A model generated the notes under the pieces. It did no database searches, was not told the DNA's origin, and saw nothing but the letters and a program-made list of their open reading frames with translations. From Olavius algarvensis Delta 4 endosymbiont (GTDB lineage: Bacteria; Desulfobacterota; Desulfobacteria; Desulfobacterales; CAJINA01), in NCBI GenBank assembly GCA_905176665.1, contig CAJINA010000104.1, positions 36,699 to 100,698 on the forward strand: a DNA stretch of 64,000 bases, written 5' to 3'. A program made the translations under genes and the position numbers. Positions 2,811 to 50,807 of this stretch are shown here, in pieces (the stretch's first letter is position 1; every line of letters begins with the position of its first letter).

Positions 2811-3875
2811 CTAAAACCATTTCTTTTTCTTAAAATACAGTATCATGCCAGCTGCGATGGCTGCCATAGCAGACAGAGCAACAAAGTAACCGTGTTTCAT
2901 CTTCAGCTCAGGCATCCATTCAAAGTTCATCCCGTATATCCCGGCTATGAAAGTCAAGGGAATAAAGATGGTGGCCATAATGGTTAGCACCTGCATCACC
3001 TCGTTCATCCGGTTGCTGACGGTGGAAAGATACAGATCCTGCATACCTGAGAGGATATCTCGGAAAGAATCGATTGTGTCCGTCACCTGAATAAGATGAT
3101 CATATACATCTGAATAAAAGATCCCTGTGGACTCTTGAATTAGCGGGGATTCTGTCTTGATCAGCCGATTTACCATTTCTCGCATGGGCCAAACCTGCTT
3201 TCGAAACAAGATCATCTCGCGTTTTAGCTTGTGGATAGACTCAAGCCGGGAGGCACTCGGATTATCCATCAAATCTTGTTCAAAGCCTTCTATCTTTTCT
3301 CCCAAGCTTTCAAGGACTACAAAATAGTGATCCACGACAGCATCGATCAATGCATAGGCTAAATAACCAGCGCCCGCCGTGCGGATACGGCCTTTTCCTC
3401 TTTTGATCCGTTCACGGACAGGCTCAAATAGGTCACCCTCTGCTTCTTGAATGGAAATCACAAAACCGTCGCCCACAATCAGGCTGGTTTGCTCGGCTTT
3501 AACAACCCCGGCCTGCTGATCGAACACCAGCATTTTAAAGACCAGGTAAAGATAGTCTTCATAGTCATCGATTTTGGGGCGCTGTCGGGTGTTCACGATG
3601 TCTTCTAAGGTTAGTGGATGGATACCCACATCTTTGCCCAGCTGCCCTATGAATTCAACATCATGGATACCATTGACATTGTACCAGACAACCCCGACTT
3701 GCGTGCGAATCTGATTGAATTGCTCAGTCTCAACCGATTCGTTTTCTATCAGGTGACCCTCGTTATAGTGCGTAATTGAAGTGCTAGTCTGTTGAACCTT
3801 TTTTTCACCAACATGGATAAGGGCGCCGGGAGCGCCCCCAACCGGTTTGCGCGACTTTTTAAATAGTTTGGCCAT
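2811..3875 (-). CDS. corA: Magnesium/cobalt transporter CorA
   Basis: 354 aa; C-terminal two TM helices with canonical YGMNFEWMPEL (GMN motif) and a basic tail. Confidence 0.9.
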   Translation of the reverse strand: MAKLFKKSRKPVGGAPGALIHVGEKKVQQTSTSITHYNEGHLIENESVETEQFNQIRTQVGVVWYNVNGIHDVEFIGQLGKDVGIHPLTLEDIVNTRQRPKIDDYEDYLYLVFKMLVFDQQAGVVKAEQTSLIVGDGFVISIQEAEGDLFEPVRERIKRGKGRIRTAGAGYLAYALIDAVVDHYFVVLESLGEKIEGFEQDLMDNPSASRLESIHKLKREMILFRKQVWPMREMVNRLIKTESPLIQESTGIFYSDVYDHLIQVTDTIDSFRDILSGMQDLYLSTVSNRMNEVMQVLTIMATIFIPLTFIAGIYGMNFEWMPELKMKHGYFVALSAMAAIAAGMILYFKKKKWF

Positions 3876-11671: not shown

Positions 11672-11863
11672 TTAAATTTTCGTCGCAGATTGCCGGTAAA
11701 CCTTACAGGATACTGTTATCTTTTACAAAGATGACAGGCTGAGGGGTTATATGAGGGATTTAAAAAATTCAAAGGTGCTAATCTGTAAGGCATAGCCCAT
11801 TCAAGCGACAAAATGCTAAACTCAATTTCATTACGATGCGTTCCAGTGAAAAGGAAAAGCAAC

Positions 11864-12640
11864 ATGTCAGTCAAAATAAACTCTATAGCCTTGATCCGGT
11901 TCCGCCCGTGGGTTGTGACCCTGGCGGTACTATTTCTGACACTATGTATATGGACGGCATCTGCAGCGGCAGTGGACCACACCTCGTATACCGACCTGTT
12001 GACCCAATACAATCGTAACGGGAATGTGGATTATGCCGGCCTCAAGAAAGACGAAGCACGCCTGGATGAATATCTGGACCAATTGGCTAAAATCGATCCG
12101 GAAGATTTATCCCGCGACGAGAGATTCGCCTTTTACGCAAACGCTTACAATGCCTGGACCATCAAGCTCATATTAACCGGGTATCCCGGGGTTGGATCGA
12201 TCAAGGACCTGGGCAGCCTGTTTAGAAGTCCCTGGAAGAAGAAGTTCGTCAAACTGGGAGGCAAAGTCATCACCCTGGACCATATCGAACATGATATCCT
12301 TAGACCGCAATTCAAAGATCCCCGGGTGCACATGGCGGTGAACTGTGCTTCGAAGAGTTGCCCGCCACTTTGGAGCGAGCCCTTTACAGGCAGCCGTCTC
12401 AATGATCAACTGAACACTGCCACCCGTAACTTCATCAACAATCCTGGATTTAACCGGCTGGAAGGCAACACACTTTATGTCAGCCGAATCTTTAAATGGT
12501 TCAGCGAAGACTTCGACGACGATGTTATCGGCTTCGTTGAAAAATACGCGGAGGGCGAACTCAAACGTAACATCACAGCCAACCGGTCAGCCATCGAAGT
12601 AGAGTATCTGGATTATGACTGGTCACTCAATGGCCGCTAA
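11864..12640 (+). CDS. DUF547 family protein (secreted)
   Basis: FAFYANAYNAWTIKLIL matches the DUF547 core (F-W-I-N-x-Y-N). N-terminal signal peptide. ATG at 11864 with an upstream aaaggaaaag SD; the ORF opens at 11813. Confidence 0.7.
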   Translation: MSVKINSIALIRFRPWVVTLAVLFLTLCIWTASAAAVDHTSYTDLLTQYNRNGNVDYAGLKKDEARLDEYLDQLAKIDPEDLSRDERFAFYANAYNAWTIKLILTGYPGVGSIKDLGSLFRSPWKKKFVKLGGKVITLDHIEHDILRPQFKDPRVHMAVNCASKSCPPLWSEPFTGSRLNDQLNTATRNFINNPGFNRLEGNTLYVSRIFKWFSEDFDDDVIGFVEKYAEGELKRNITANRSAIEVEYLDYDWSLNGR

Positions 12641-12754: not shown

Positions 12755-13336
12755 ATGAAAGATGGCCCGCAAATAGATCCTGAGTCCTGGGTAGACCGCT
12801 ATGGTGACGCGCTATTTCATTTTGCTCTGGCGCGCGTCAAAGACAGAGAGATCGCTGAAGATCTTGTTCAGGAAACCTTCCTGGCGGCTGTCAAAGCCAA
12901 GGACCGCTTCAAAGGAAAATCCACGGAAAAGACTTGGTTGTTCGGTATCCTGAAGCACAAAGTGATCGATCACTACCGCAAGAAAAGGTCAGTCATTTAT
13001 GAACAGGACCTCAGTAAGGGAACCGAAGACCTGGATGCTTTTTTTAACGCCAAAGGCGCCTGGTCAACCATGCCGGAAAACTGGCGCTTGAATCCCGGCA
13101 AATCCCAGGAGGTCAGAGAGTTTATTGATCATTTCTACCAGTGCCTGGCCGACTTGCCCAAGAAAACAGCTGAGGTATTCGCCTTTCGGGAAATCGACGG
13201 GCTGAGTACCAAGGAAATATGTAAGCGCCTGAACATCACCGCCAGCAATTGTCGGGTGATTTTGTACCGGGCTAGAATGCTGTTGCGTAAATGCCTCGAG
13301 TTGGCCGGTCTTGGGCCAAGCGGGGCTGCAGAATAA
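12755..13336 (+). CDS. RNA polymerase ECF-type sigma-70 factor
   Basis: Region 2 (DLVQETFLAAVKA...) and region 4 HTH (STKEICKRLNITASNCRVILYRARMLLRK). Confidence 0.85.
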   Translation: MKDGPQIDPESWVDRYGDALFHFALARVKDREIAEDLVQETFLAAVKAKDRFKGKSTEKTWLFGILKHKVIDHYRKKRSVIYEQDLSKGTEDLDAFFNAKGAWSTMPENWRLNPGKSQEVREFIDHFYQCLADLPKKTAEVFAFREIDGLSTKEICKRLNITASNCRVILYRARMLLRKCLELAGLGPSGAAE

Positions 13337-13632: not shown

Positions 13633-13801
13633 ATCACGTCCCGGTTTTTCTCCTGGTACTGCCCCTCCCCTTGAGCAATATGGTTAGCCCCAATTTTCCT
13701 GTAAGGAATTTGGCCAGTAACTGACAAAATTAATAGAAGCTATTAACTCATATCGTAAGTCACTGCCTATGACTGCAGCGGCTCACGGAAATGGGGGTCC
13801 C

Positions 13802-14452
13802 ATGAAAACCAAACTAAAAAGAAAATGGATCTTGTTCGTGATCCTGTTTGCCTTCGCAGGCCTGCTGCTGGTGTCCCAGTCATCCGGGACGGCCGCCCTG
13901 AAAGAAGGTGAAAAAACATATATTGTCGATCAAACCGGCGAGCGCTGGAACATCACCCAGGCGGTATCCCTGGGGTTCAATCCGCGCTATTTTGAATTCG
14001 GCATCGGGCGCAATGCGTTCACGCCCCTGGGGGAGGACAACTGGCAGGAAAGCCCGGTGGACGAATATTCCCAGATGCGGGTTATCGGCATAACCGGCAA
14101 CGGTGAGGCCCACGCCTATTCCATAGCGAAACTCTGGTCACACGAAACCGCCAATACCCATTTGGGTTCCCAGCCGATCGTCGCCGGCTACTGACCGCTT
14201 GTCAATCTGGCGGCTGTGTACAGCCGCGAAATCGATGGACAGGCGCTCACGCTGGCGCCCTCGGGGTGGACCTATCGGCGCACGTTTGTGCTCTATGACA
14301 AGGAAACCGGCACGCTCTGGTATCCGGATAGGGGCAGCCTGATGGGCATCCAGGGCAAGCATTTCAAGCGGCGGCTGCCCATGTTGGAGTCGACCGACAC
14401 CAAGTTCAATAAATGGGTAAAGGAGAATCCAGCGACCAAGTTGATGAAGTAG
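13802..14452 (+). CDS. DUF3179-family secreted protein, predicted selenoprotein (in-frame UGA at 14192-14194 read as Sec)
   Basis: ORFs 13769-14194 and 14216-14452 are in the same frame, separated only by TGA. Joined translation ...VIGITGNGEAHAY...SQPIVAGY-U-PLVNLAAVYSREIDGQALTLAPSG...VLYDKETGTLW matches the DUF3179 core (…AVTYCPLC…DGxxLTF…YDRETxSLW) with Sec at the first Cys of YCPLC. Stem-loop 15 nt downstream of the UGA. Confidence 0.7.
14207..14228 (+). other. SECIS-like stem-loop downstream of the DUF3179 UGA
   Basis: ggcggctg-tgta-cagccgc: 7-bp stem, 4-nt G/U-containing loop, starting 15 nt 3' of the UGA. Confidence 0.5.
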
Positions 14453-14603
14453 AAAAGCGGGCCAGGAATTTTGAGCGGCCGGTTGCCAGGCGGATGTACC
14501 ACCGGTTACCGGCCAGAGTAAAGCATCCTGGCCCAGAGGGCCAGGCTTTGAGGTACCCCTAAAAGGAGCCTCCCCATCAAAACAAGATGACAAAACTATG
14601 CAT

Positions 14604-23232: not shown

Positions 23233-26200
23233 CTAGCGTCGACCATCACCTACAATGGCATAGGGCGCCCAGAAAATCGGATGGGCGTATGAAAACCCCT
23301 GGTCATGATTCTTGGCAATCATGGCATTCATTGTCTGACGCAGCGCTTCGGCCCGGTTGATACCCGGGTTTTCCAATTGCCGTTTGAACAGGTCAGTGGT
23401 TAATAGTTTCGCACTCACCGTCTCCACCGGCCAGCCGGTCACCAGCATAGACCGGGCCCCGGCATAGAAAAAGGCTTGTCCCAATCCGGACACTGCTTCG
23501 GCGCCCTCACCTTCGGCCGCCCCGGTGTTGCAGGCCGACAAAACAACCCAGTCGGCATTGAGCCGCAGCCCCATGATTTCACCCATGGTCAGCAGGCCGT
23601 CCTCGTCTGGGTTACCGGTGATATCCGGGGCGCTCAGGGCCAGGGCCGGCTGATCGAGCCCGTCCAGGTCGCCCGGCACCAGGCCGTGGGTGGCAAAGAC
23701 CACCACCTTGCGGTTGCTCAGGTCCAGGGATTTAACAATCTGCTCGCTGGCCTGTTTACCGATGAACACATCCTTTTCAGTGTCCGCATTCAGCGAAACG
23801 GCAATATTGAGGACCTCCTCACGGGTATCCGGCAGACGGTTAAGCATGCTGATGTCAATGGATGCAATCTTCTTCTTGTCGATCCGGCCGGCTTCGGTCA
23901 CCCGGATGCCGCGCATCTGGATGGGAGCATTGCGCATGGCCAGCATCTGGTCCTGCATGGCTTCGTCCTCTGCTTGGGCCAGTTGATCTTTATTGAAGTA
24001 GGGATCACCGAATCCGGCATAGGCGGCCCGTTCAGTTTGCTGGGGAACAATGGAACGCAGGTTGACCAAAGCGGATACCGACGGCAGGACCGTCACCGAA
24101 TGGTGTCTTATCAACCAGTCGACATCCTGATAATTTGAAAAGACCGGTTTGCCGGTTGCGGCTTCGGTTTTGAATTTCGCCTTAGTCGGCAGGATGGAGA
24201 GTGGTATCTGGCCGATCGGTCCCTGGGTGATCACCATCAGATGCTCGGCTTCTTTCCAGCCGGTTTCGACTGGTTTAAGCGTCTGCTTATACAGACTGTA
24301 GGCCAGTTCCAGGTCAAACTGCGGCAACTCCAGGATCCCGAACACCTCACCCGGATTGAGGGCTTTTCGCAATTTGCCCACCACGCCTGCCATTTTTTCT
24401 TTTCCGATGGGAACCTTGGCCAGTGCTACTGGCCCGGTTTTGGGGATGGCCCAGATAAAGGTATAATCTTTTCCCGAGAAGATAGATATCAGGGTCTCGC
24501 TCTCATCCAACGTAGTTCGGACCTTGGCCACATCGGCACTCTCCAGGTTTACGATATTGGCGTACTCGGGAAAACTATTTTTAATCTCCTGTTCCAAAGT
24601 CTTTACTGCCAGATGAACGGTCGTTACCTGGTCGCGCAGTTCATTGATGACTTCGGTATTGATCAACTCTAGTGGTGCAAAAAGGGCATTGTTCAGTCGG
24701 TTTTTAAAAGCGGACAGTTTCAATTCCAAATCCTGACGCTGCCGGATCAGGCCAGCCAGGCCAGGGTCTTTCACTGCAACACGAGCTGAGCTTTGGGCTA
24801 CTGCCCGGCCGATCAGCTTGTCCTGCAAGGCGCTGGTATATTTAAAACTATTTTCGGCGTCCTCAGATTTGCCACTGTCGGCCAGCAGCGCCAGGTAGGC
24901 TTCCAGAATCAGTTTAAACTTAAATGGCCGCGCATTCTCCGAGTTGATGCCCTCCTCCTTGGTTTCCCATTTTTTCAGCAGCATGGGAACATATTGGTCA
25001 AATGTTTTCAGCGCGGTCTTGGGTTGGCCGAACCTTGCCAATGCAATAGCGTGTAACCCTTTCAGTTCAGCCTGTTTATAGGTATCCGCACCTATAATTT
25101 GTTCACTTTGCCGGACGGCGAACTCAAGCTTATCAATGGCCGCCTGAATATCGCCGCTCATCAACAGAGCCAGCCCCCATTCGGCACTCCCTTTAAACCG
25201 ACGATTAAAGGTCGCCGGGTCGGTTTTCAACTCATCCTCGATCAGCTTGAACTGCTCCAGCGCGTCCCTGTACTGACCAAGGGCAAACAGGGCTCGCGCA
25301 TAATCTTCCCGGGCTTTTGCCCTAACAAAGGCGTCAATGGGAGCCCGCAAAGACATGGTCACATGCAACGCCGTCCGCGCACATACGCTGGCATCTTCAA
25401 AGCGGCCCTGTGCGAAAAAAATGCGGCTCAAAGTCAGGAATGCGTGCGGTTGGATGTTTACGTGCCCCAGGCGAACAGCTTCGCGCACCTGTATTTCTGC
25501 TTCCGTTACACGCCCCTGCGCCAGCAGAACCCGAGCAAGATTTACATGGGCTTCGGGTTCATGCGAGGTTGGCTCGGCCAAGCGGCCATTGTGGCGGAAC
25601 TTATCAAGGTCAATCAGAAGCTGTCGATACGCCTGCTCGGCCGCCGCCAAATCCCCGCGGGCAAAATCAACTGCTGCCCTGGACCGGGTGACGACTGCCT
25701 TCATCAGAAGTGATCTGGCGTGGGTACTGTGGTTTCGCCCCGTCCAGGATCTATATTGGCTATAGTAACGATTGGCTGCAGAAAGCGCCGGTTCGGCTGC
25801 TTTGTAATCGCCGGCCTCTGCCAGGATTGAGGTCTTGAAGGCATACGCTTCAGATTTATTCCCAGACATCCTTTCAGGCGCTTTGGAAATTGCCAGGTCT
25901 GCCAACCGGATTGAAAAGCTGAGGTTGCCCAGTAAAAATTCATCATAGGCCCAAGTGGCATAAAATCTGGGCTCATCATACTTGCGTTGTTTCTTTACGC
26001 CTTTATAGAGGTCATTGAGTTCCGCGTCGGTATACCTTTTACGGGGAATCAGGAATTCTGCGGGCACATTGGGTGGGTCTTTATAGTAGGCCACCTTCCG
26101 CTCGATCAACTCCCCCAACCCTCGTGGCGGAACGATCTTATATGTCTCCTGAAACTCAATGGCCACATCCTGGGCCTCTTGAACAGACATAGTGTTGGTT

Positions 26201-26274
26201 TTACACCCGGTGATGATTCCAACCATAGCTATGAATACAAGGATCTTGAGCAACCGCGCAGAAGTCGTATGCAT
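23233..26274 (-). CDS. CHAT-domain (caspase-like) protein with TPR repeats, lipoprotein
   Basis: Lipobox IITGC after a signal peptide. Central TPR-like repeats. C-terminal CHAT with His/Cys dyad context (VVFATHG... VVLSACNTG). Confidence 0.85.
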   Translation of the reverse strand: MHTTSARLLKILVFIAMVGIITGCKTNTMSVQEAQDVAIEFQETYKIVPPRGLGELIERKVAYYKDPPNVPAEFLIPRKRYTDAELNDLYKGVKKQRKYDEPRFYATWAYDEFLLGNLSFSIRLADLAISKAPERMSGNKSEAYAFKTSILAEAGDYKAAEPALSAANRYYSQYRSWTGRNHSTHARSLLMKAVVTRSRAAVDFARGDLAAAEQAYRQLLIDLDKFRHNGRLAEPTSHEPEAHVNLARVLLAQGRVTEAEIQVREAVRLGHVNIQPHAFLTLSRIFFAQGRFEDASVCARTALHVTMSLRAPIDAFVRAKAREDYARALFALGQYRDALEQFKLIEDELKTDPATFNRRFKGSAEWGLALLMSGDIQAAIDKLEFAVRQSEQIIGADTYKQAELKGLHAIALARFGQPKTALKTFDQYVPMLLKKWETKEEGINSENARPFKFKLILEAYLALLADSGKSEDAENSFKYTSALQDKLIGRAVAQSSARVAVKDPGLAGLIRQRQDLELKLSAFKNRLNNALFAPLELINTEVINELRDQVTTVHLAVKTLEQEIKNSFPEYANIVNLESADVAKVRTTLDESETLISIFSGKDYTFIWAIPKTGPVALAKVPIGKEKMAGVVGKLRKALNPGEVFGILELPQFDLELAYSLYKQTLKPVETGWKEAEHLMVITQGPIGQIPLSILPTKAKFKTEAATGKPVFSNYQDVDWLIRHHSVTVLPSVSALVNLRSIVPQQTERAAYAGFGDPYFNKDQLAQAEDEAMQDQMLAMRNAPIQMRGIRVTEAGRIDKKKIASIDISMLNRLPDTREEVLNIAVSLNADTEKDVFIGKQASEQIVKSLDLSNRKVVVFATHGLVPGDLDGLDQPALALSAPDITGNPDEDGLLTMGEIMGLRLNADWVVLSACNTGAAEGEGAEAVSGLGQAFFYAGARSMLVTGWPVETVSAKLLTTDLFKRQLENPGINRAEALRQTMNAMIAKNHDQGFSYAHPIFWAPYAIVGDGRR

Positions 26275-33345: not shown

Positions 33346-33615
33346 TCATTCGGAATACTTTTTCCACAGGTGCCCATAAGCGCCGTTTTGCTTGATCCGA
33401 TCCAAGGAAGTCTGGAGTTTATTCACAAGAACATCCTCAGTTTTGCGGTTCACCGCCAGGTAATAATCATAGCGGTCATCCAGCAGGATCGTTTTCACTA
33501 CAAGATATTTTGAGGTAGTTGCTTTAAGGTGCGCCGGGTAATTCTCAGCGAGATTGTTTCCCTTAATTTTATCTATTTCGGAAATAGTCCCTGAGCACGC
33601 CCTTGACCAGATCAC
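33346..33615 (-). pseudogene. Relic C-terminal fragment of a solute-binding protein family 3 (amino-acid ABC substrate-binding) gene
   Basis: 89-aa ORF ...YYLAVNRKTEDVLVNKLQTSLDRIKQNGAYGHLWKKYSE matches only the C-terminal about 60 aa of SBP_bac_3 proteins. No N-terminal domain. Overlaps the 3' end of the caspase-like gene. Confidence 0.4.
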
Positions 33616-35278
33616 CGATCACTCCACCGGCTGTATAGTGATTGCCCCGGGCTTTTTTCTTATAGACCTTGGCATTTTCCGTATCATACAGAAATACCGT
33701 GCAACTTTCTTTAATGCTTATCCCTACATCGATGTCAACCAGAACAACCAGATTCGCGCCGACCTGAAGGCCGATGTCACGCACGGTTTTCAAGTCCGGT
33801 TCCAATTTCGAGAACATGTTCTTGCGCTTCCAAAGATTGGGGCTGTTGTGTTTTTCAAATATGCGCGGCTGCGTCAGTTCCACGGGAATGCTATCGGACG
33901 TTTCATATGAGTATTGCAAGGCAACCCGTTCATCACGGTCCAGGGTGGAAACGATCCCCTCCAGGGCGCTACTTTCCACGTTCTTGAGCCAGGCCTCCAG
34001 GTTCGCCTCAGCGGTATAAATGTTGGGGGGCAGGATTGCCAACCGGTAAGCTTCACGGGCGACCCTGCGTGAATTTGTGGTTTGAGGCGAAAGAGCTGCC
34101 TGGAGGCTACTTGCTGTAGCGGTTTTTTCAGCGGTCTTCCTCTTGCGCTCCATCTCCTCCATTTGGGCCTGCAATTTGGCATACTCGATTTCCTGCTTTT
34201 GTTGTTCCAGCTTGAGCTTTTCCAGTTCAATGGTTTTCTGCTGGGCCAGCTGTTCCTTCTCCAGGGCCAGTTTCTGTTTTTCCATTTCAAAACGCTGGCG
34301 TTGGAGTTCCAGTTCAGCCTGGGCCACGGTGGCCTGCTGCCGGGCCCGGTTCTGCTGCTGCCGCTGTGCTTCCAGGGCGACGTGTTTACGGGCATGCTCC
34401 GCGGCCCAGGCCGTGTTGTAAAGCACGAACTGACCGTCCTGGTCCATGGGCGTCTTCAAGCGCCCCACGTTGGGCCGCTGGTCTCCGATCTCGGTCACCT
34501 TGGTCCAGACCCGGGTGTGGAACAGGTTTTCCAGGTCGATCACCTCGCGGTCGTTCTTGCGCAGGGCATCGATCAGGTAAAAGGCAAACAGGCTGTGGCC
34601 TTCGGCGCCGCCGTCCGCCACCGGCTCCACCCCGCCCGACGAGATCACCTGGCGACTGCGCAAGGAGGCTTTCTGGACCAGCTTTTCCTTATAGCGGCGG
34701 TCGTTTAAAGACATCAGCGAGGGACCGCCGCGCAGCATGGACCCGCTGTAGCAGGAGTCGGCAATGACCACCACGTTCTTGGTCTGCAGTTTTTCCGAGC
34801 TGAGCACCGCCTTGATGTAGGAGTTGGCCACCCAGGTCCCGGGGTTTTTCAGGGCACCTTCGGCCGGCACCCAGTAGCCGTCGCCGGTAAAGTCGTCCAA
34901 CTGGCCGTGGCCGGCATAATAGACGAACAGGTTGTCGTGCGCGCCCATGGACTGGGCCAGGTAGCGCAGGTCCTGGATAATCTGCAGGCGGCTGGCCTGG
35001 CGGTCGGTGCGCAGGATGACACTGTCGGGTTTGAACCCGTAGCGGCCGACCAGGGTCTCTTTGATGACCGTGGCGTCCTTTACAGCCGTCTTGAGTCGCG
35101 GCCATTTGGCATAGTCATTTATGCCGATGATCAGGGCGTGGTAGGCACCCCAGGAACCGGACGCTCCGGATTGCGGGACGATGGCCAGGCCGCGCTGTGT
35201 GGATTGAGCTAAAACGGGATGATTGAGAAGAAAAAACAGGGATACTGAAAGGGTCAGAATAAGCCGTTTCAAAAGCAA
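33569..35278 (-). CDS. Secreted caspase-like (peptidase C14/orthocaspase) protein with Q/E/K-rich coiled-coil linker and C-terminal CsgG/LpoB-like(?) domain, paralog 1
   Basis: Signal peptide. HALIIGINDY...YYAGHGQL (His)...VIADSCYSGS (Cys) dyad. Long ELQRQRFEMEKQKLALEKEQL coiled coil. C-terminal about 170-aa domain shared with the paralogs. Confidence 0.85.
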   Translation of the reverse strand: MLLKRLILTLSVSLFFLLNHPVLAQSTQRGLAIVPQSGASGSWGAYHALIIGINDYAKWPRLKTAVKDATVIKETLVGRYGFKPDSVILRTDRQASRLQIIQDLRYLAQSMGAHDNLFVYYAGHGQLDDFTGDGYWVPAEGALKNPGTWVANSYIKAVLSSEKLQTKNVVVIADSCYSGSMLRGGPSLMSLNDRRYKEKLVQKASLRSRQVISSGGVEPVADGGAEGHSLFAFYLIDALRKNDREVIDLENLFHTRVWTKVTEIGDQRPNVGRLKTPMDQDGQFVLYNTAWAAEHARKHVALEAQRQQQNRARQQATVAQAELELQRQRFEMEKQKLALEKEQLAQQKTIELEKLKLEQQKQEIEYAKLQAQMEEMERKRKTAEKTATASSLQAALSPQTTNSRRVAREAYRLAILPPNIYTAEANLEAWLKNVESSALEGIVSTLDRDERVALQYSYETSDSIPVELTQPRIFEKHNSPNLWKRKNMFSKLEPDLKTVRDIGLQVGANLVVLVDIDVGISIKESCTVFLYDTENAKVYKKKARGNHYTAGGVIGDLVKGVLRDYFRNR

Positions 35279-35616
35279 CCTCCAGCCAAGGGAACCATCA
35301 AATGTAGTCTCAATTGAAATGGGTCTGCGGATGCTAATATAGTTTCAAAATAAAGGCAAGTGTGGGCGCTCATGTATCCAATTATCCGTAAACGTTCTTT
35401 GTCAGCCAAGTCAGATGGATTGCTTGAGGTGCCTATTGGCAATGACGATGGACCAAATATCTTAAATTGGAACACTTAAAATGGCTGGCTCATTACTTTG
35501 AAGGCAGGTTTTTAGGAAGCACGATTTTGAGGTAACAATGATGCAATCGGCAGGTAATACAATTAGAAGATAGTTAACCAATGGCCAGTCGATTCTTTAA
35601 AGCCAGGCATCCGATA

Positions 35617-37311
35617 TCATTGGTTCTTAAAATAGTCTTTCATAAGGCTGCGTACATAACCCTCAACGCTGTTAGGATATGCAAGCCAGGCGGGCCTGAA
35701 ATTTTTAGAGTAAATCTTTGCCTTAGCTAAGTCATATAAATAGAAGGTAAAACTTCCGGGATAGATTTCACCTTCTATCATCAAAACAAGATCCACGTCA
35801 ATTTTCAGATTGAGTTTATTAACTTCTTCCCAATCCGGCTTCAATCTGGAGAATATCGATTTCTTTTTCCATACATCATTTTTCGTAATATCACTTAGAA
35901 TTGTTACGCCTTCCGTAAAGTCCTCAAATTCTTCGTAACCATGGGTTAATTTTAATCTATCATCATCAAACGTTACATTGGCGACTGCTTGTATGCTGGC
36001 CAATTGATAACTACGCAGATATCTATCATCATTCGTGGAAGCATATAAATTCTGAGGTAATATCGCCAATTTGTATTCTTCTCGGGAAGCTTTCCGGTTT
36101 AACGCTCCGGGTTGATTTTTTACGGGAGGAGATACTGCCGCGACCATTTGCTGGCCAACCGGCGGGGCGGTTTCTTGAGGTTTGCGCTTCATATCTTCCA
36201 GTCGCGCCTGCAGCTTGGCATATTCGATCTCCTGTTTTTGCTGTTCCAACTTGAGCTTTTCCAGTTCGATGGTTTTCTGCTGAGCCAACTGCTCTTTTCC
36301 CAATGCCAGCTTTTGCTTTTCAATCTCAAAGCGCTGGCGCTGTAGCTCCAGTTCAGCCTGGGCCACCGCGGCCTGCTTTCAGGTCCGGTCCTGCTGCTGC
36401 CGCTCGGCTTCCAAAGCCGTGTGCTTCCGGGCGTGCTCCGCGGCCCAGGCCGTGTTGTAAAGCACGAACTGACCGTCCTGGTCCATGGGCGTCTTCAAAC
36501 GCCCCACGTTGGGCCGCTGGTCGCCGATCTCGGTCACCTTGGTCCAGACCCGGGTGTGGAACAGGTTTTCCAGGTCGATCACCTCGCGGTCGTTCTTGCG
36601 CAGAGCATCGATCAGGTAGTAGGCAAACAGGCTGTGGCCCTCGGCGCCGCCGTCCGCCACCGGCTCCACCCCACCCGACGAGATGACCTGACGCGAACGC
36701 AGAGATGCTTTCTGGACCAGCTTTTCCTTGTAGCGGCGGTCGTTTAGCGACATCAACGACGGTCCGCCTCTCAGCATGGAACCGCTGTAGCAAGAGTCGG
36801 CAATGACCACCACGTTCTTGGCCTGCAGTTTTTCCGAGCTGAGCACCGCGTTGATGTAGGAGTTGGCCACCCAGGTCCCGGGGTTTTTCAGGGCACCTTC
36901 GGCCGGTACCCAGTAACCGTCGCCGGTAAAGTCGTCCAACTGGCCGTGGCCGGCATAATAGACGAACAGGTTGTCGTGCACGCCCATGGACTGGGCCAGG
37001 TACCGCAGGTCTTCGATGATCTGCAGGCGGCTGGCTTTACGGTCGGTACGCAGGATGACGTTATCAGGTTGAAATCCGTAGCGGGAGATAAGAGTCTCTT
37101 TGATAACCGTGGCATCCTTCACTGCGGTCTGCAGCCGCGGCCACTTGGCATAGTCATTTATGCCGATGATCAGGGCGTGGTAGTCACCCCAGGAACCGGA
37201 CGCACCGGATTGCGGGGCGATGGCCAGGCCGCGCTGTGGGGATTGAGCTAAAACAGGATGATTGAGAAGAAAAAGCAGGAATACCAATAAGGTAAGAATT
37301 CTCAAATGCAA
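35617..37311 (-). pseudogene. Caspase-like (C14) paralog 2 interrupted by an in-frame TGA (36379-36381); otherwise the same architecture
   Basis: ORFs 36379-37311 and 35617-36366 are collinear with paralog 1. The TGA AAG replaces the CGG CAG (Arg-Gln) of the paralog inside the coiled coil. No SECIS-like hairpin follows. Confidence 0.6.
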
Positions 37312-38047: not shown

Positions 38048-41000
38048 CTATCGATAATCACCAATAACCTGGAATGCAGCCCAATAATAAGGATGCCGGT
38101 ATTCCGGGTTCCCAATCATTTCTAACTGGGCCTGCCGCATGGCGGCAAACTTATTCATGGATTTTGGATTCGCGTAAAAGTGTTTCATCAACACACTGGT
38201 GGACTTGTCGTTCACACTCCAGAAGGTGCTCATGATCGAGGGTGTCCCGGCAAACATGAAGGCCCGGGTCAACCCCATGAGCTCGTCGCCGCTGGCCATT
38301 TTGCCCATAGCGGTGTTGCAGGCGCTAAGTGTAACCAGATAGGCATTCAGATTAAGCTCGAAGATTTCGGCGGTTTCCAGCCGGCCATCCTCATCGTTGC
38401 CCGGGGCCAGCCGCAGGCAGGAGAGCAGCGGGGTGTCCTGGTTGAATTCCCCGTGGGAAGCAATATGCAGAATATCGTAGTTGCCGGCGCTTTGCTTGAA
38501 AGCCGACTCTGAAGCCTGGTTCTGCGTCAAAACTGTGGTCTGATTGAAAAACTGCCTGATGTCCCGGACTTCAACCTCCGCATAGGGCAGCGTCATTTGG
38601 GGGTTACCCAGATTGGGGTTTCCGAGTGCCAGGACCGCCTTTTTAACAGTCTTCTTTTTATCAAAGACATGCCCGAGAACCGAGGCGCTGGGGGAGTAGC
38701 CAATCTCGTAGCTTTCAATCAAATATTTTCCTTCGAGGGTCAGGGCCTGGAAAGGCAGGTAGTGGAGAATCCCGTGCGGAATGATATATATTTTCCCGGC
38801 TGGGATGCCTGATAAAATGTCCGTGACCAGGACATCTTCCAACTGCCGGCTGATGGCCGCCAGGCTTTCCCGGGTTGGGGTCTGACGCGGCGCTTCCTGT
38901 GCGGCGACTTCCAGCCCGCGGACTGTATCCGGCCGACTGATAAGGTCGCGGTAGGCGCTGACAAGCTCAAGCAACTCGCTTGCGTCTATCTGTTTTTGAA
39001 CAAACCGAAAAGATTGCGGCCCGATGATCCAGGCAAATAGGTGCTTATCCCGGAAGTAATATTCCACCAGATGGGCATCCGCCGGAAGCAGTGCCTGGAC
39101 TTTTTCAATCGGCAGGGTGTCCGCTGACCGCAGGGATGCAAAATCTTTATTCCGACGAAACCAGCGCGAAAAGAACTCACCCAGGGCGCCCCGGGCGGCC
39201 GCTATTTCCCGGCTGTTGTCTATAGCCGCACCGCGTTCCTGGAACATACGCGTGTTCATTTCCGTACGGTATTGGACGTTCAACAAGTTCTCCCGCAGCC
39301 TTTTTTCTTCTTCCGTTATCTCCTTGAGGGCTTCGTTTTTTTGGCCGATGATTTTATCCGATCTGGCGATCAAATCAAGAAAGGCGCGTGCTTTTGATTT
39401 TTCTACATAATTATAGGCTGCTTTCGTTCGCTCTAGTTTAACCAAGCACTTTACCATGCGGGCGTAAGGCTCCTGCTTGTCCGACATGAAATTAATTTTA
39501 AGACCATGCGAAGTAAGTCGCGCCCGCGAAAATTCGATGGCATCGATTGCTTTTTGGTAGAATTCCACGGCCAACTCCAGCTTGTTTTCGGACTCGGCGA
39601 TCATCCCCTGGAGCTGGTAGGACCGCCACAGGAAGGCATTGGTCGGGGATTTTACGTTTTGCAAGATTTCCCGCGCCGGCTTGTATTGCCCCTGGTGGTA
39701 TAGTGTTTTGGCGATCCCGATTTGGATGCTGATCATCTGGTCATGGTATATGGCAGGCCGAACCTCGTAGCCAAGATACTTTTCTGCCTCCCTATATAGC
39801 CGCAGCGCCTCTACATAACCGCCGTTGCGCAGAGCGGCATCGCCCATGGTTTGATAGGCGATAGCCAGGGGGACAAACTTACCGATCTCCGTCGTCCGTG
39901 TATTGTAATGCGCCCAGGTGTCGTCAAAATTGTTTATGACCCGGTACGCATAGTATTCGGCCTCAGAACCATCCTGAAGGTGGTAGTGGTTGATGGCCAG
40001 GTAGGCACTTAATAGGAATTCCAGGTAATTCGCTTTGCCGATGATGTGTTTGGGCACCGGTCGTGACAGATTTTCTTTTACCCGCTCGATTTCCTTGAGG
40101 GCCTTTTCGCATTCGGCCACCGAGCTGTGGTAGTCCCCCACGAAGTTGTACGCCAAGGCGAGCCCGGAGCGCACTTTAGGCGTCAAGAGGGTCAGGGGTT
40201 GCTCCGCTTGCAGCCGGCTGGCTTTACGGTGGTAATCCAGGCTCTTATTGTATAGCCCGGTCCAGCGGTAATAATCGCCGATCCGGGCGTAAACATAGCT
40301 CAGGCTGTCGCCGGCCAGACTCCCGGGGTCGCTGATTTCCGCCAACAGATAGGGCAGCTTCACCAAAGCGATATAGAGTTCTTCATCGTTCAGGTCTTTA
40401 AAGAGGGCGAATTGATCCGGGAAGCGACGATCTTCTTTCACCCCGGTTGCCGATAGCTGTGAACGCCCTGATGTATGGGTTCTGATTATCGCCAGGTTTA
40501 TTCTTTTAATTATATACCGCTCATAATTAATCCTACCGCCCCTGTTGGCCGAGCGTACTTTCTGGTGGCCAAACTCGATGGTGTTTTTTCCGGAACGAAA
40601 ATAGGAAGCCGGCAGGTAGCGCTGGGTCCGGGCCTGCTTTTTTCGTTTTTTGGGCCCGGCTTGCCCGGCGTACCATTCGTCCTGATTAATCCCGTATCCT
40701 GCTCGCTTCAAAAAGCCAATCGGATGGCCGTTTAAAAAGAGCGGGTTTTCGGGATGATCTACATCCAGGGTATCGATGCTCAGGTAGGCGTACCGAATCC
40801 GCTGGGTCTCTTTCAGGTTGAAATCAAAGTGGTAGGATTGACGTACGCCGCCCCCGCTGCCTGATGAACCCATCTGCACGCCCAGGTTTCGGCTCTGAAA
40901 AAGCTCCTGCTCGAGGTGCAGGTTCTCCCTACCCTGCGGAATTGTGATTTGAAGGTTGGTGGATGAGCTGACACAGGCCCCTGCAAGCAGCGGCAGCAGG

Positions 41001-41074
41001 AACATCAAGATGATTAGGCGGATATTGTTTTTAAGGGCCTCCATTTGTACCCACCTTCCAATCCGTGTACACAC
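38048..41074 (-). CDS. CHAT-domain protein with TPR repeats, secreted/lipoprotein (paralogous architecture to 23233-26274)
   Basis: Signal peptide ending LLAGAC. TPR-like repeats. C-terminal CHAT (ILHIASHGEF...VTLSACNTAMG). Confidence 0.85.
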   Translation of the reverse strand: MCTRIGRWVQMEALKNNIRLIILMFLLPLLAGACVSSSTNLQITIPQGRENLHLEQELFQSRNLGVQMGSSGSGGGVRQSYHFDFNLKETQRIRYAYLSIDTLDVDHPENPLFLNGHPIGFLKRAGYGINQDEWYAGQAGPKKRKKQARTQRYLPASYFRSGKNTIEFGHQKVRSANRGGRINYERYIIKRINLAIIRTHTSGRSQLSATGVKEDRRFPDQFALFKDLNDEELYIALVKLPYLLAEISDPGSLAGDSLSYVYARIGDYYRWTGLYNKSLDYHRKASRLQAEQPLTLLTPKVRSGLALAYNFVGDYHSSVAECEKALKEIERVKENLSRPVPKHIIGKANYLEFLLSAYLAINHYHLQDGSEAEYYAYRVINNFDDTWAHYNTRTTEIGKFVPLAIAYQTMGDAALRNGGYVEALRLYREAEKYLGYEVRPAIYHDQMISIQIGIAKTLYHQGQYKPAREILQNVKSPTNAFLWRSYQLQGMIAESENKLELAVEFYQKAIDAIEFSRARLTSHGLKINFMSDKQEPYARMVKCLVKLERTKAAYNYVEKSKARAFLDLIARSDKIIGQKNEALKEITEEEKRLRENLLNVQYRTEMNTRMFQERGAAIDNSREIAAARGALGEFFSRWFRRNKDFASLRSADTLPIEKVQALLPADAHLVEYYFRDKHLFAWIIGPQSFRFVQKQIDASELLELVSAYRDLISRPDTVRGLEVAAQEAPRQTPTRESLAAISRQLEDVLVTDILSGIPAGKIYIIPHGILHYLPFQALTLEGKYLIESYEIGYSPSASVLGHVFDKKKTVKKAVLALGNPNLGNPQMTLPYAEVEVRDIRQFFNQTTVLTQNQASESAFKQSAGNYDILHIASHGEFNQDTPLLSCLRLAPGNDEDGRLETAEIFELNLNAYLVTLSACNTAMGKMASGDELMGLTRAFMFAGTPSIMSTFWSVNDKSTSVLMKHFYANPKSMNKFAAMRQAQLEMIGNPEYRHPYYWAAFQVIGDYR

Positions 41075-45875: not shown

Positions 45876-46304
45876 CTATTTGGCCGTTGTCGGATAGTCT
45901 GCCTCGATCCATTCATCCCAGCCGCCCTTGAGGGCATAAACGTTGTTGTAACCCTGCTCGACTAAATTGAACGCCACACTGGCGCTCGTCTGTTCCCTGG
46001 CTCAGTCGCAACACAACACAATCATCTGGTGCTTGGGGTACTTGTGGATCCAGGAGCCGACTTCCATCGGCTCTTCGCGCACGGCGCCGGCAATCAGGCG
46101 ATCACTCTTTTTCCAGTTTGGGCCATACCGGACATCAATAATGCTGACGGCCGGCTCGCCTAGCTTTTGTTTGAGCTCTTCCTTGGTTATCCTGGGTATG
46201 TGCTCCACCTGTTTGATGGATTTGATACGGTGGTGACAGCCGAAAACGAATACGAGGACGAGCAGGAAGCTTATGCGCAAGACTGCTTTTCGATAATTTC
46301 GCAT
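45876..46304 (-). CDS. Periplasmic single-domain rhodanese, predicted selenoprotein (UGA at 46002-46004 read as Sec; C-x-U active-site loop)
   Basis: ORF 46002-46400 ends IVLCCD at TGA. The frame continues AREQTSASVAFNLVEQGYNNVYALKGGWDEWIEADYPTTAK* to TAG at 45876, completing a rhodanese fold. Signal peptide from ATG 46304. SECIS-like hairpin 13 nt after the UGA. Confidence 0.7.
45969..45987 (-). other. SECIS-like stem-loop (rhodanese 1)
   Basis: Minus-strand gagcgcc-agtgt-ggcgttc, 7-bp stem with one G-U pair, 13-14 nt 3' of the UGA. Confidence 0.5.
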
Positions 46305-49070: not shown

Positions 49071-50807
49071 CTACAAGCTACGTTTGTATTTTTCCAGAAG
49101 CTTGGTAGTATATTTGTCAACCAAATTACCAACGCCGAACCAGGCGCGGGCGCGTATTTTTTCGTTATACATTTTTCCGGTTCTGGCATTATAGACCAGG
49201 ATAGTGACTGTTACGCCGTCAGAGTCGGCGTGAATCTTTATTAAAGCAGCGATATCCATATCCAGCTTCCGGCAGACTTTTCTGATCTGCTCCAAGTCCG
49301 GTTCCGGTTTTGAAAGAAAGGATTTCTTTTTCCAGACGGCAAGTTCTTTTTTGTCGATTTTCTCCGCCAAGGGTGTGATTGTCTCGGGCAAATCGCTGGT
49401 AATTTTGTATGATGCCGCGAATTCAACTGCGTCACTTTTTCCGGTAGCCAGGTACACGCCCTGTATGGCTGCCGCTTCAAAGTTAGCCAGACCCCCGGTG
49501 GCCGATTCGATCACATTTATCGGAAAGAGTGCCAGCTTATAGCGTTCCCGGAAGACGGGGCGCTCGGATTGCAAACTTTTATCTACCGCGGCTAACTGCG
49601 TTTGCTGTTGGGAAAGTTGAGTTTGCTGCTTGGTAAGCTGAGTTCGCTGATCGGCCAATTTGCGGTCGTTCTCCAATTTATCCAGACGCGCCTGCATTTT
49701 GGCATACGCGATCTCCTGTTTTTCCCTTTCCAGCTTGAGCCGTTCCATCTCAAGGCTTTTCTGTTGGGCCAGTTTATCCCTCTCCAGGGCAAGTTTCTGT
49801 TTCTCCATCTGGATACGCTGGCGCTGGAGTTCCAATTCCGCCGATGCGACCGCGGCTTTCTGGCGGGCTTGCTCTTCTTTTTTGGCGGCCGCCTGGGCAG
49901 TTGCTTGGGCAGCCGCTTGCTTGCGGGCCTGCTTTTCAGCCCAGGCCGCGTTGTAAAGCACGAATTGGCCATCCTGGTCCATCGGGATTTTTAAACGGCC
50001 CACGTTGGGTCGTTGGTCGCCGATCTGGGTCACCTTCTCCCACACCCGTGTATGAAAGAGGTTTTCCAGGTCGATGACTTCACGGTCGTTGGTTTTCAGG
50101 GCATTGATGAGGTAGTAAGCAAACAGGCTGTGGCCGTCGGCCCCGCCGTCGGCAACCGGCTCGACGCCGCCCGAAGAGATGACCTGGCGAGATCGCAGGG
50201 CGGCCTTCTGGGCCAGCTTTTCCTTGTAGCGCCGATCTTCCAGGGACATCAAAGACGGCCCGCCGCGCAGCATGGAACCGCTGTAGCAGGAGTCGGCAAT
50301 AACAACCACATTTTTGGCCTGTAATTTTTCGGAACTCAGGACCGCCTTGATATAGGAATTGGCAACCCACGTGGCCGGGTCTTTCAGGGCGCCCTCGGCC
50401 GGCACCCAGTAGCCGTCGCCGGTGAAATCAGCCAATTGCCCGTGACCGGCAAAGTAGACGAGCAGGTTGTCGTTCTGACTCATGGATACAGCCAGATACC
50501 GCAGGTCACCAGTAATCCTGATTCGGTTGGCATCCCGGTCTGTGCGCAGGATGACATTCTGCGGGTTAAAACCGTAATTGGTGATCAGGGTATCCCGGAT
50601 AACGGTGGCGTCTTTCACCGCGGTTTGGAGGCGGGGCCACTTGGCATAATCGTTTATACCGATGATAAGGGCGTAGTACGTACCCCAGGAACCGGCGTTT
50701 ACTTGGGTGGGTGCCACAGCCAGTCCCCTTTGCGGGGATTGGGCCATTGCGGGCGGCACCAGAACTATCAAGGCAAGTACCAGGAAAGGCAGAATTGTCC
50801 GTTTCAA
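49071..50807 (-). CDS. Secreted caspase-like (peptidase C14) protein with coiled-coil linker and shared C-terminal domain, paralog 3
   Basis: Signal peptide. YALIIGINDY...YFAGHGQL...VIADSCYSGS. Q/E/K coiled coil. C-terminal RERYKLALFP...WKKKSFLSKPEPDLEQ...LVYNARTGKMYNEK homologous to paralogs 1 and 2. Confidence 0.85.
   Translation of the reverse strand: MKRTILPFLVLALIVLVPPAMAQSPQRGLAVAPTQVNAGSWGTYYALIIGINDYAKWPRLQTAVKDATVIRDTLITNYGFNPQNVILRTDRDANRIRITGDLRYLAVSMSQNDNLLVYFAGHGQLADFTGDGYWVPAEGALKDPATWVANSYIKAVLSSEKLQAKNVVVIADSCYSGSMLRGGPSLMSLEDRRYKEKLAQKAALRSRQVISSGGVEPVADGGADGHSLFAYYLINALKTNDREVIDLENLFHTRVWEKVTQIGDQRPNVGRLKIPMDQDGQFVLYNAAWAEKQARKQAAAQATAQAAAKKEEQARQKAAVASAELELQRQRIQMEKQKLALERDKLAQQKSLEMERLKLEREKQEIAYAKMQARLDKLENDRKLADQRTQLTKQQTQLSQQQTQLAAVDKSLQSERPVFRERYKLALFPINVIESATGGLANFEAAAIQGVYLATGKSDAVEFAASYKITSDLPETITPLAEKIDKKELAVWKKKSFLSKPEPDLEQIRKVCRKLDMDIAALIKIHADSDGVTVTILVYNARTGKMYNEKIRARAWFGVGNLVDKYTTKLLEKYKRSL

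Follow-up and report, generated by a model that had tools for sequence, protein, structure and literature searches.

Does an in-frame TGA in the genome of the Olavius algarvensis Delta 4 endosymbiont (Desulfobacterota) end a gene, or does it encode selenocysteine (Sec)? The codon lies in a 64,000-nt stretch of contig CAJINA010000104.1 (assembly GCA_905176665.1, positions 36,699 to 100,698 of the forward strand), which was analysed at its full length and is called the window here; coordinates refer to its first letter as position 1. Two open reading frames (ORFs) on the plus strand, 13802-14191 and 14195-14452, lie in the same frame, with this TGA as their sole separator. The ORF list gives the same pair as 13769..14194 and 14216..14452, and gene-caller output at the locus consists of two ORFs of 130 and 78 amino acids. 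A sequence-only reading of the window had already pointed to two same-frame ORFs split only by TGA, which is borne out by the sequence and its translation. Our analysis indicates that 13802-14452 is very probably one gene, encoding an exported single-module DUF3179 selenoprotein whose UGA is recoded via a selenocysteine insertion sequence (SECIS).

A DUF3179 gene that continues through the UGA

Around the codon, the plus strand reads GTC GCC GGC TAC TGA CCG CTT GTC AAT CTG GCG GCT GTG TAC AGC CGC, and translation of 13802-14455 yields 216 residues with one internal stop (...SQPIVAGY*PLVNLAAVYSREIDG...). The ATG at 13802 is backed as the start codon by the N-termini of homologs and by the JGI gene call. 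Judged by eye from its N-terminus, the protein is presumably exported; homologs display comparable signal peptides or lipoboxes (e.g. LLVAGC, VIAAC), and all forms have one. The window protein is devoid of Cys, which leaves Sec as its sole Cys-type residue.

In the Pfam search, the joined protein matches PF11376 (DUF3179) contiguously through the TGA and well above threshold (97.1 bits at a cutoff of 27, E 1.6e-27). The N-terminal part alone covers profile positions 25-64 and the C-terminal part alone 66-147; thus, the TGA corresponds to profile position 65. In BLASTP against P0286, a canonical DUF3179 protein of 352 amino acids, the TGA stands opposite the first Cys of WCPLC. Both comparisons agree with the sequence-only reading, which had placed the TGA exactly at the first Cys of the family motif. 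Its claim of an end-to-end DUF3179 alignment holds insofar as both sides of the TGA match, but not in extent: the window protein lacks the full-length two-module match of ~292 profile positions and covers only 25-147 of 292.

This partial coverage follows from the architecture of the family. Residues 94-212 of the window protein align with both halves of P0286, at 38% and 23% identity (BLASTP), and when the Cys form served as a HMMER query, canonical members of 330-430 amino acids were matched in two stretches. To judge from these alignments, canonical DUF3179 is a tandem of two modules in which CPLC is confined to the first. Single-module proteins match just the first half of the Pfam model because the model spans both modules. 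Set beside the window protein, P0276, P0286, and P0290 also present the canonical form of PF11376 as an internal duplication of a ~120-amino-acid module. Ahead of the single module, a conserved segment of ~60 amino acids (YIVDQTGERWDITQAVSxGFxPxxFxFGIGRNAF) lies outside the Pfam coverage.

When the joined sequence was searched against a set of 5.8 billion proteins, 97 homologs came back, of which about 90 have lengths of 126-130 amino acids and end in ...(A/G)Y, the residue immediately before the TGA. Three carry W at the TGA position, apparently from gene calls that decode TGA as Trp; for one of these, P0008, the DNA was examined and the codon is TGA. A further homolog, P0036, carries Cys at the site. 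At the nucleotide level, a scan in which a single genome stood for each GTDB species gave 78 loci, with flanks of only ±3 kb. The full gene is present in 76 of them, and the other two are C-terminal remnants only. With tandem paralogs and the window gene counted in, there are 82 distinct gene copies from ~75 species, and the codon is TGA in all 82, across at least seven phyla. Carriers belong to Desulfobacterota (many families), Nitrospirota/Thermodesulfovibrionia, Latescibacterota, Calditrichota, Gemmatimonadota, KSB1, and Deferribacteres; the cultured species Desulfoluna butyratoxydans and D. spongiiphila are among these carriers. Moreover, the same TGA occurs in independent assemblies of the source organism (at least 43 contigs). 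As in the window, most homologs in JGI, ENA, and Logan data are split into two ORFs.

Directly after the TGA, homologs strongly keep P-L-V-(D/N)-L-A-A-V-Y-S-R-E-I-D-G, and further downstream SGWTY, TFVLYDKET, LWYP, and other stretches are conserved. In the codon alignment of this region, synonymous sites are free, with a normalised codon entropy of 0.75-1.0. Amino acids that are kept while synonymous sites vary freely are the mark of translation that goes on beyond the UGA. Homology confined to the upstream part, which the sequence-only reading had named as evidence against itself, is not what the alignment displays: conservation extends past the TGA.

The residue replaced by the UGA is evident from relatives that lack it. 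The Cys forms P0036 (YCPLV) and P0238-P0241 have Cys in a YCPLV/A motif, and the UGA pairs with Cys in these proteins as well as in canonical WCPLC. Some single-module relatives have neither Sec nor Cys and carry Q, S, D, E, or R at the site. In locus L082, both forms occur in tandem, with a Sec paralog (3132-3812) directly upstream of the Cys paralog P0036 (4001-4753). Across the sequences compared, the single-module clade normally has Sec and only exceptionally Cys; the sequence-only reading, in contrast, had allowed for a rare Sec form. Tandem copies are also seen elsewhere: two or three Sec copies stand in a row in Latescibacterota/Calditrichota loci and in L078 (unclassified uncultured bacterium), and L070, L071, and L072 are likewise tandem-paralog loci. 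For a structural view, an AlphaFold2 model of the Cys homolog P0036, built from a 51-sequence alignment, is all-beta and of only moderate confidence (predicted local distance difference test score 70.8, predicted template modelling score 0.58). A sequence search of the PDB found no relative.

The gene belongs to a known selenoprotein family and not to a new one. The sequence-only reading had held that DUF3179 is not listed as a selenoprotein family and that the gene might found one, which is wrong on both counts, as the family has been listed since 2007. Two reviews, from 2022 (PMC9312934, example MBW1804167.1) and 2026 (PMC13188914, example MDJ0986319.1), tabulate DUF3179 (pfam11376) among selenoproteins with the motif UxxC/T, and both cite for it the work of Zhang & Gladyshev (2007) on Olavius algarvensis symbionts (PMC1976440). 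NCBI protein names concur: a search with the C-terminal half retrieved fragments of 83-84 amino acids, 64-73% identical, named "DUF3179 domain-containing (seleno)protein" (P0128, P0196, P0198, P0202). The example accessions in the reviews could not be linked to the clusters retrieved in our searches, and neither the joined protein nor P0036 (Cys form) nor the fragment P0128 matched an NCBIfam model.

A hairpin under RNA-level constraint

Bacterial SECIS elements are stem-loops immediately 3' of the UGA (PMC9312934) with a conserved G in the apical loop (PMC1976440, Fig. 5 legend). In the window, the hairpin GCGGCUG-UGUA-CAGCCGC begins 15 nt past the TGA, and its loop begins 22 nt after the UGA, in agreement with the 7-bp stem and 4-nt loop that the sequence-only reading had described at this distance. 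A 69-nt stretch folds at -30.6 kcal/mol with a z-score of -2.5 (RNAfold).

The 60 nt from the UGA onward align without gaps among the 82 copies. No variation occurs in columns 25-29 (GUGUA), not even at the third position of the Val codon, which is four-fold degenerate, and all 82 copies have the same G and U in the apical loop. Further, synonymous entropy drops only at the hairpin codons, which are those at +7 to +11 counted from the UGA; it amounts there to 0.32 for Ala GCT, 0.00 for Val GTG (82/82), 0.17 for Tyr TAC, and 0.21 for Ser, which is AGC or AGT and never TCN; the Arg codon is exclusively CGN. In the upper stem, columns 19-25 pair with 30-36 in nearly all copies, and the outermost pair 19:36 varies in a compensatory manner (GC 43, GU 13, AU 7, UA 3). 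In Latescibacterota, Calditrichota, KSB1, and Gemmatimonadota, the Ala codons are GCU GCC in place of GCG GCU; the hairpin of this divergent group has a stem of 5-6 bp, its register moved by three nt, and still displays GU in its 7-nt loop. By this pattern of codon usage and pairing, RNA-level constraint acts on the hairpin. Taken together, the comparative evidence (TGA in 82/82 copies, frozen hairpin codons, Sec/Cys pairs) strongly supports the selenoprotein and SECIS that had been proposed from the window alone.

In the mechanism that we favour, SelB and Sec-tRNA(Sec), recruited by the upper stem-loop of the hairpin, would recode the UGA to selenocysteine. Sec would thereby take the place of the first Cys in CPLC, giving U-P-L-V. 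As the protein would have no other Cys-type residue, Sec most likely forms the reactive centre, as a redox nucleophile or as a metal or metalloid ligand, and would act outside the cytoplasm.

Sec decoding in the host and other readings of the UGA

A second candidate in the window bears on the decoding capacity of the host. An ORF of 142 amino acids with a rhodanese domain (45876-46304, minus strand) contains an in-frame TGA (46002-46004) in the active-site loop (...MIVLCCD*AREQTS...), followed by a downstream hairpin with a GUG loop. With C at the TGA, it scores 148.9 bits at a cutoff of 115 on the NCBIfam model NF041203, "rhodanese-related (seleno)protein", and is a probable second selenoprotein gene of a known family, unannotated in ORF terms. 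Two independent selenoprotein-family genes, each with a TGA at the Sec position of its family, point to a host that very likely decodes Sec. Thermodesulfobacteriota, moreover, rank with the organisms in which selenoprotein genes are most enriched (PMC13188914).

One further TGA was tried as a third Sec site and rejected. A caspase-domain gene (Peptidase_C14; 35617-37311, minus strand) is split by an in-frame TGA at 36379-36381. Its unsplit paralog at 33569-35278 is 70% identical over the whole length and aligns an Arg with the TGA, in a low-complexity coiled-coil linker. The codon is therefore excluded as a Sec site, and the alignment indicates that it is probably a CGA-to-TGA nonsense mutation. 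The surroundings of this gene are unusual in themselves: two CHAT-TPR proteins of ~1000 amino acids each and three caspase-domain paralogs are concentrated at 23233-26274, 33569-37311, 38048-41074, and 49071-50807, among PAS, histidine-kinase, and response-regulator genes.

Several observations weigh against the Sec reading of the DUF3179 gene. Pfam scans found no selA, selB, or selD in the 64-kb window, and a tRNA search there gave no tRNA gene of any kind and thus no selC. The lower stem of the extended SECIS is without covariation support, with 76.4% of cells paired compared to 76.2% in shuffles, and RNAalifold retained just four pairs. Rfam returned no match for the window at the gathering threshold, nor for 14150-14300 at E<=10. 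A similar hairpin persists in the one Cys paralog examined, that of L082, and the hairpin is therefore not strictly tied to UGA; in this copy, it may be a fossil SECIS. Finally, the P0036 model is poor around the Cys loop and leaves the chemistry unconstrained.

The alternative that survives best holds that the UGA is read as Trp, Cys, or Gly without selenium, with the hairpin acting as a generic read-through stimulator or being kept for another reason. The hairpin of the L082 Cys paralog fits this view, as does the W that some gene callers produce at the site. However, the UGA stands opposite the motif Cys as a classic Sec/Cys pair, and the hairpin occupies the position of a SECIS (PMC9312934) and carries the conserved apical-loop G (PMC1976440). 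TGA is, further, a regular stop in 10 of the 41 other ORFs of the window, including the Pfam-matched MscS, aconitase, TauE, and O-methyltransferase genes. With TGA in its usual role as a stop in these ORFs, the genetic code is not reassigned, and global TGA reassignment is ruled out. Carriers in the phyla richest in selenoproteins (PMC13188914), the rhodanese gene with its own in-frame TGA, and the classification of DUF3179 as a selenoprotein family by curated sources add to the case for Sec, and we give decoding by a standard amino acid a slim chance.

Translation could instead stop at the UGA, with the C-terminal part made separately from the in-frame GTG at 14216, to give a two-chain split protein. 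This GTG does open a 78-amino-acid ORF with its own Pfam match. PLVNLAA, however, which lies between the UGA and the GTG and would be lost, is among the most conserved sequences of the family, and the protein is one chain in Cys forms and in canonical members alike. Nor is the start of the second ORF conserved, as homolog fragments begin variously, at lengths of 78, 83, or 84 amino acids. A split protein is accordingly very improbable. A sequencing error or inactivating mutation as the origin of the TGA, leaving a pseudogene or two unrelated ORFs, would fit the split made by gene callers and has a genuine counterpart in the nonsense-type TGA opposite Arg in the caspase-like paralog, but is effectively refuted, with next to no chance of being right, by the conservation of the codon in every copy, phylum, and independent assembly and by protein-level purifying selection on the downstream part.

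Upstream operon, promoter motif, and comparison with known systems

DUF547, sigma factor, and anti-sigma genes lie directly upstream of the DUF3179 selenoprotein gene (Table 1). The anti-sigma contains five Cys in 88 residues, and no membrane-spanning hydrophobic stretch is evident by eye. An ECF (extracytoplasmic function) sigma and zinc anti-sigma pair had been reported here from sequence alone; position, sigma factor, and anti-sigma are confirmed, but the zinc motif is not. The window anti-sigma reads R-L-V-M-C-R-Y-C, in which Arg replaces the His of HxxxCxxC, and Pfam zf-HC2 gave no match to it at E<=1. The ortholog in L061 reads H-L-G-M-C-K-Y-C, i.e. with His present.

Table 1. Features of the DUF3179 locus and the operon upstream of it, in window coordinates.
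Feature	Position	Strand	Details and basis
Complete coding sequence, DUF3179 selenoprotein (predicted)	13802..14452	+	216 amino acids, U = residue 131; TAG stop 14450-14452
In-frame UGA as putative selenocysteine, motif Y-U-P-L-V	14192..14194	+	Translation, homolog codon conservation, Cys alignment
Putative N-terminal signal peptide or membrane anchor, MKTKLKRKWILFVILFAFAGLLLVSQSSGTAA	13802..13897	+	By eye from sequence
Single DUF3179 module	14072..14446	+	Residues 91-215, profile 25-147 of 292; Pfam and BLASTP
SECIS upper stem-loop (predicted)	14210..14227	+	GCGGCUG/CAGCCGC 7-bp stem, UGUA apical loop; folding, 82-copy alignment
Extended predicted SECIS, lower stem back to UGA	14192..14249	+	Minimum free energy -30.6 kcal/mol, z -2.5
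DUF547 gene (PF04784), first in upstream operon	11813..12640	+	Pfam
ECF sigma factor, TIGR02943 family	12755..13336	+	Sigma70_r2 and r4_2; TIGR02943 177.3 bits, cutoff 162.2
Small Cys-rich anti-sigma, 88 amino acids	13366..13632	+	Generic anti-sigma model NF052368, 50.9 bits, just above cutoff 50
ECF-type promoter motif GTAAGGAATTTGGCCAGTAACTGAC (-35 GTAAGG, -10 TGAC)	13701..13725	+	~76 nt before start codon
Second motif copy	11785..11809	+	Before DUF547/sigma/anti-sigma operon
Third motif copy	11682..11706	-	Before small membrane-protein ORF

Aligned intergenic regions share a promoter motif at fixed spacing, TGTAAGG-N16-CGAC, which was scanned for as GTAAG-N17-GAC. Of 77 loci, 35 have this pattern upstream of the selenoprotein gene, always 440-530 nt ahead of the UGA, and its density there is 26 times that in the rest of the same loci. 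The 54 hits over all loci include 32 before the DUF3179 gene, four before DUF547, two before the anti-sigma, and one before the Lpd-like gene. The window itself holds five copies compared to 0.85 expected, a number reached in none of 100 shuffles, and three of the five cluster at the DUF3179 locus. This layout appears to be that of an autoregulated ECF sigma factor with its target promoters, and the clustering and conservation of the motif suggest a regulon. The DUF3179 gene would most likely be transcribed from the ECF-type promoter ahead of it, served by the adjacent sigma/anti-sigma pair, as the operon of this pair carries the same motif; some signal would presumably release the sigma factor. 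Literature searches, none of them aimed at the motif itself, turned up no description of such a regulon, and those on DUF547 with ArsS, DUF547 with ECF, and Desulfoluna with selenocysteine found nothing useful. A simple terminator scan past the DUF3179 gene yielded nothing convincing.

Within the ±3 kb flanks, the sigma/anti-sigma pair is found near the homologous gene in ~12 of 76 loci and DUF547 adjacent to it in eight of 76. An ArsS-type radical SAM (seleno)protein is encoded in 13 of 76 (TIGR04167, 402 bits in L061), and a Lpd-like flavoprotein disulfide reductase, which often accompanies the ArsS-type gene, neighbours the selenoprotein gene in 11 of 76. Both the ArsS-type and the Lpd-like gene are absent from the 64-kb window. 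The loci with an ArsS-type neighbour are L007, L012, L016, L027, L038, L048, L051, L059, L061, L070, L071, L073, and L074.

A wider interpretation is possible, and we hold it to be doubtful. The single-module U-P-L-V clade might form an exported DUF3179 branch, nearly obligate in its use of Sec and apart from the UxxC/T proteins, and be a conserved target of an undescribed ECF regulon (GTAAGG-N16-CGAC) that recurrently includes DUF547, the ArsS-type radical SAM (seleno)protein, and the Lpd-like reductase. Together, these proteins might form an envelope module for thiol/selenol stress or for metalloids (As/Se) in anaerobes.

The locus is a clean example of a mis-annotated Sec gene. In public databases, the gene and hundreds of its homologs are stored as truncated halves (N-terminal of ~128-130 and C-terminal of 78-84 amino acids) or with a false Trp. 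Experiments on DUF3179 function can be guided by a clade that is almost always Sec, by a presumably exported protein with a lone Cys-type residue, and by the conserved ECF-type promoter alongside DUF547 and, elsewhere, ArsS and the flavoprotein reductase. Such experiments could be hosted by the cultured Desulfoluna species, which carry the gene.

RsrA-SigR is a small redox-sensing pair of a ZAS anti-sigma and an ECF sigma factor. The window would share with it the order of an ECF sigma followed by a small Cys-rich anti-sigma, apparent autoregulation, and a neighbouring target with the same motif; it would differ in the anti-sigma, which is without the His of HxxxCxxC and without a zf-HC2 match. 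Among described ECF groups, GTAAGG-N16-CGAC was matched to none. The hairpin shares with bacterial SECIS elements (fdhF type; bSECISearch consensus) a stem-loop 3' of the UGA within the coding sequence and an apical-loop G followed by U ~22 nt after the UGA. It differs in the two alternative stem registers found among DUF3179 homologs.

Canonical Cys-type DUF3179 proteins (~330-430 amino acids, WCPLC) share HE-x-x-N and CPL with the window protein, and their module 1 is the one 38% identical to its residues 94-212. In contrast to the window protein, they use Cys, keep the second Cys of CPLC, and possess a degenerate second module without the Cys motif, to which the 23% identity applies. With the published DUF3179 selenoproteins, the window protein has in common PF11376, Sec as the first residue of a CxxC-type motif, an origin in Desulfobacterota-type anaerobes, and a SECIS 3' of the UGA. 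While the motif of the published proteins is UxxC/T, the fourth residue in the window clade is mostly V, else A, Q, S, or I, and in none of the 82 copies C or T; the window motif itself, U-P-L-V, accordingly has neither Cys nor Thr at this position. In place of the two modules of the canonical architecture, proteins of the window clade thus combine a single module with a conserved N-terminal segment of ~60 amino acids.

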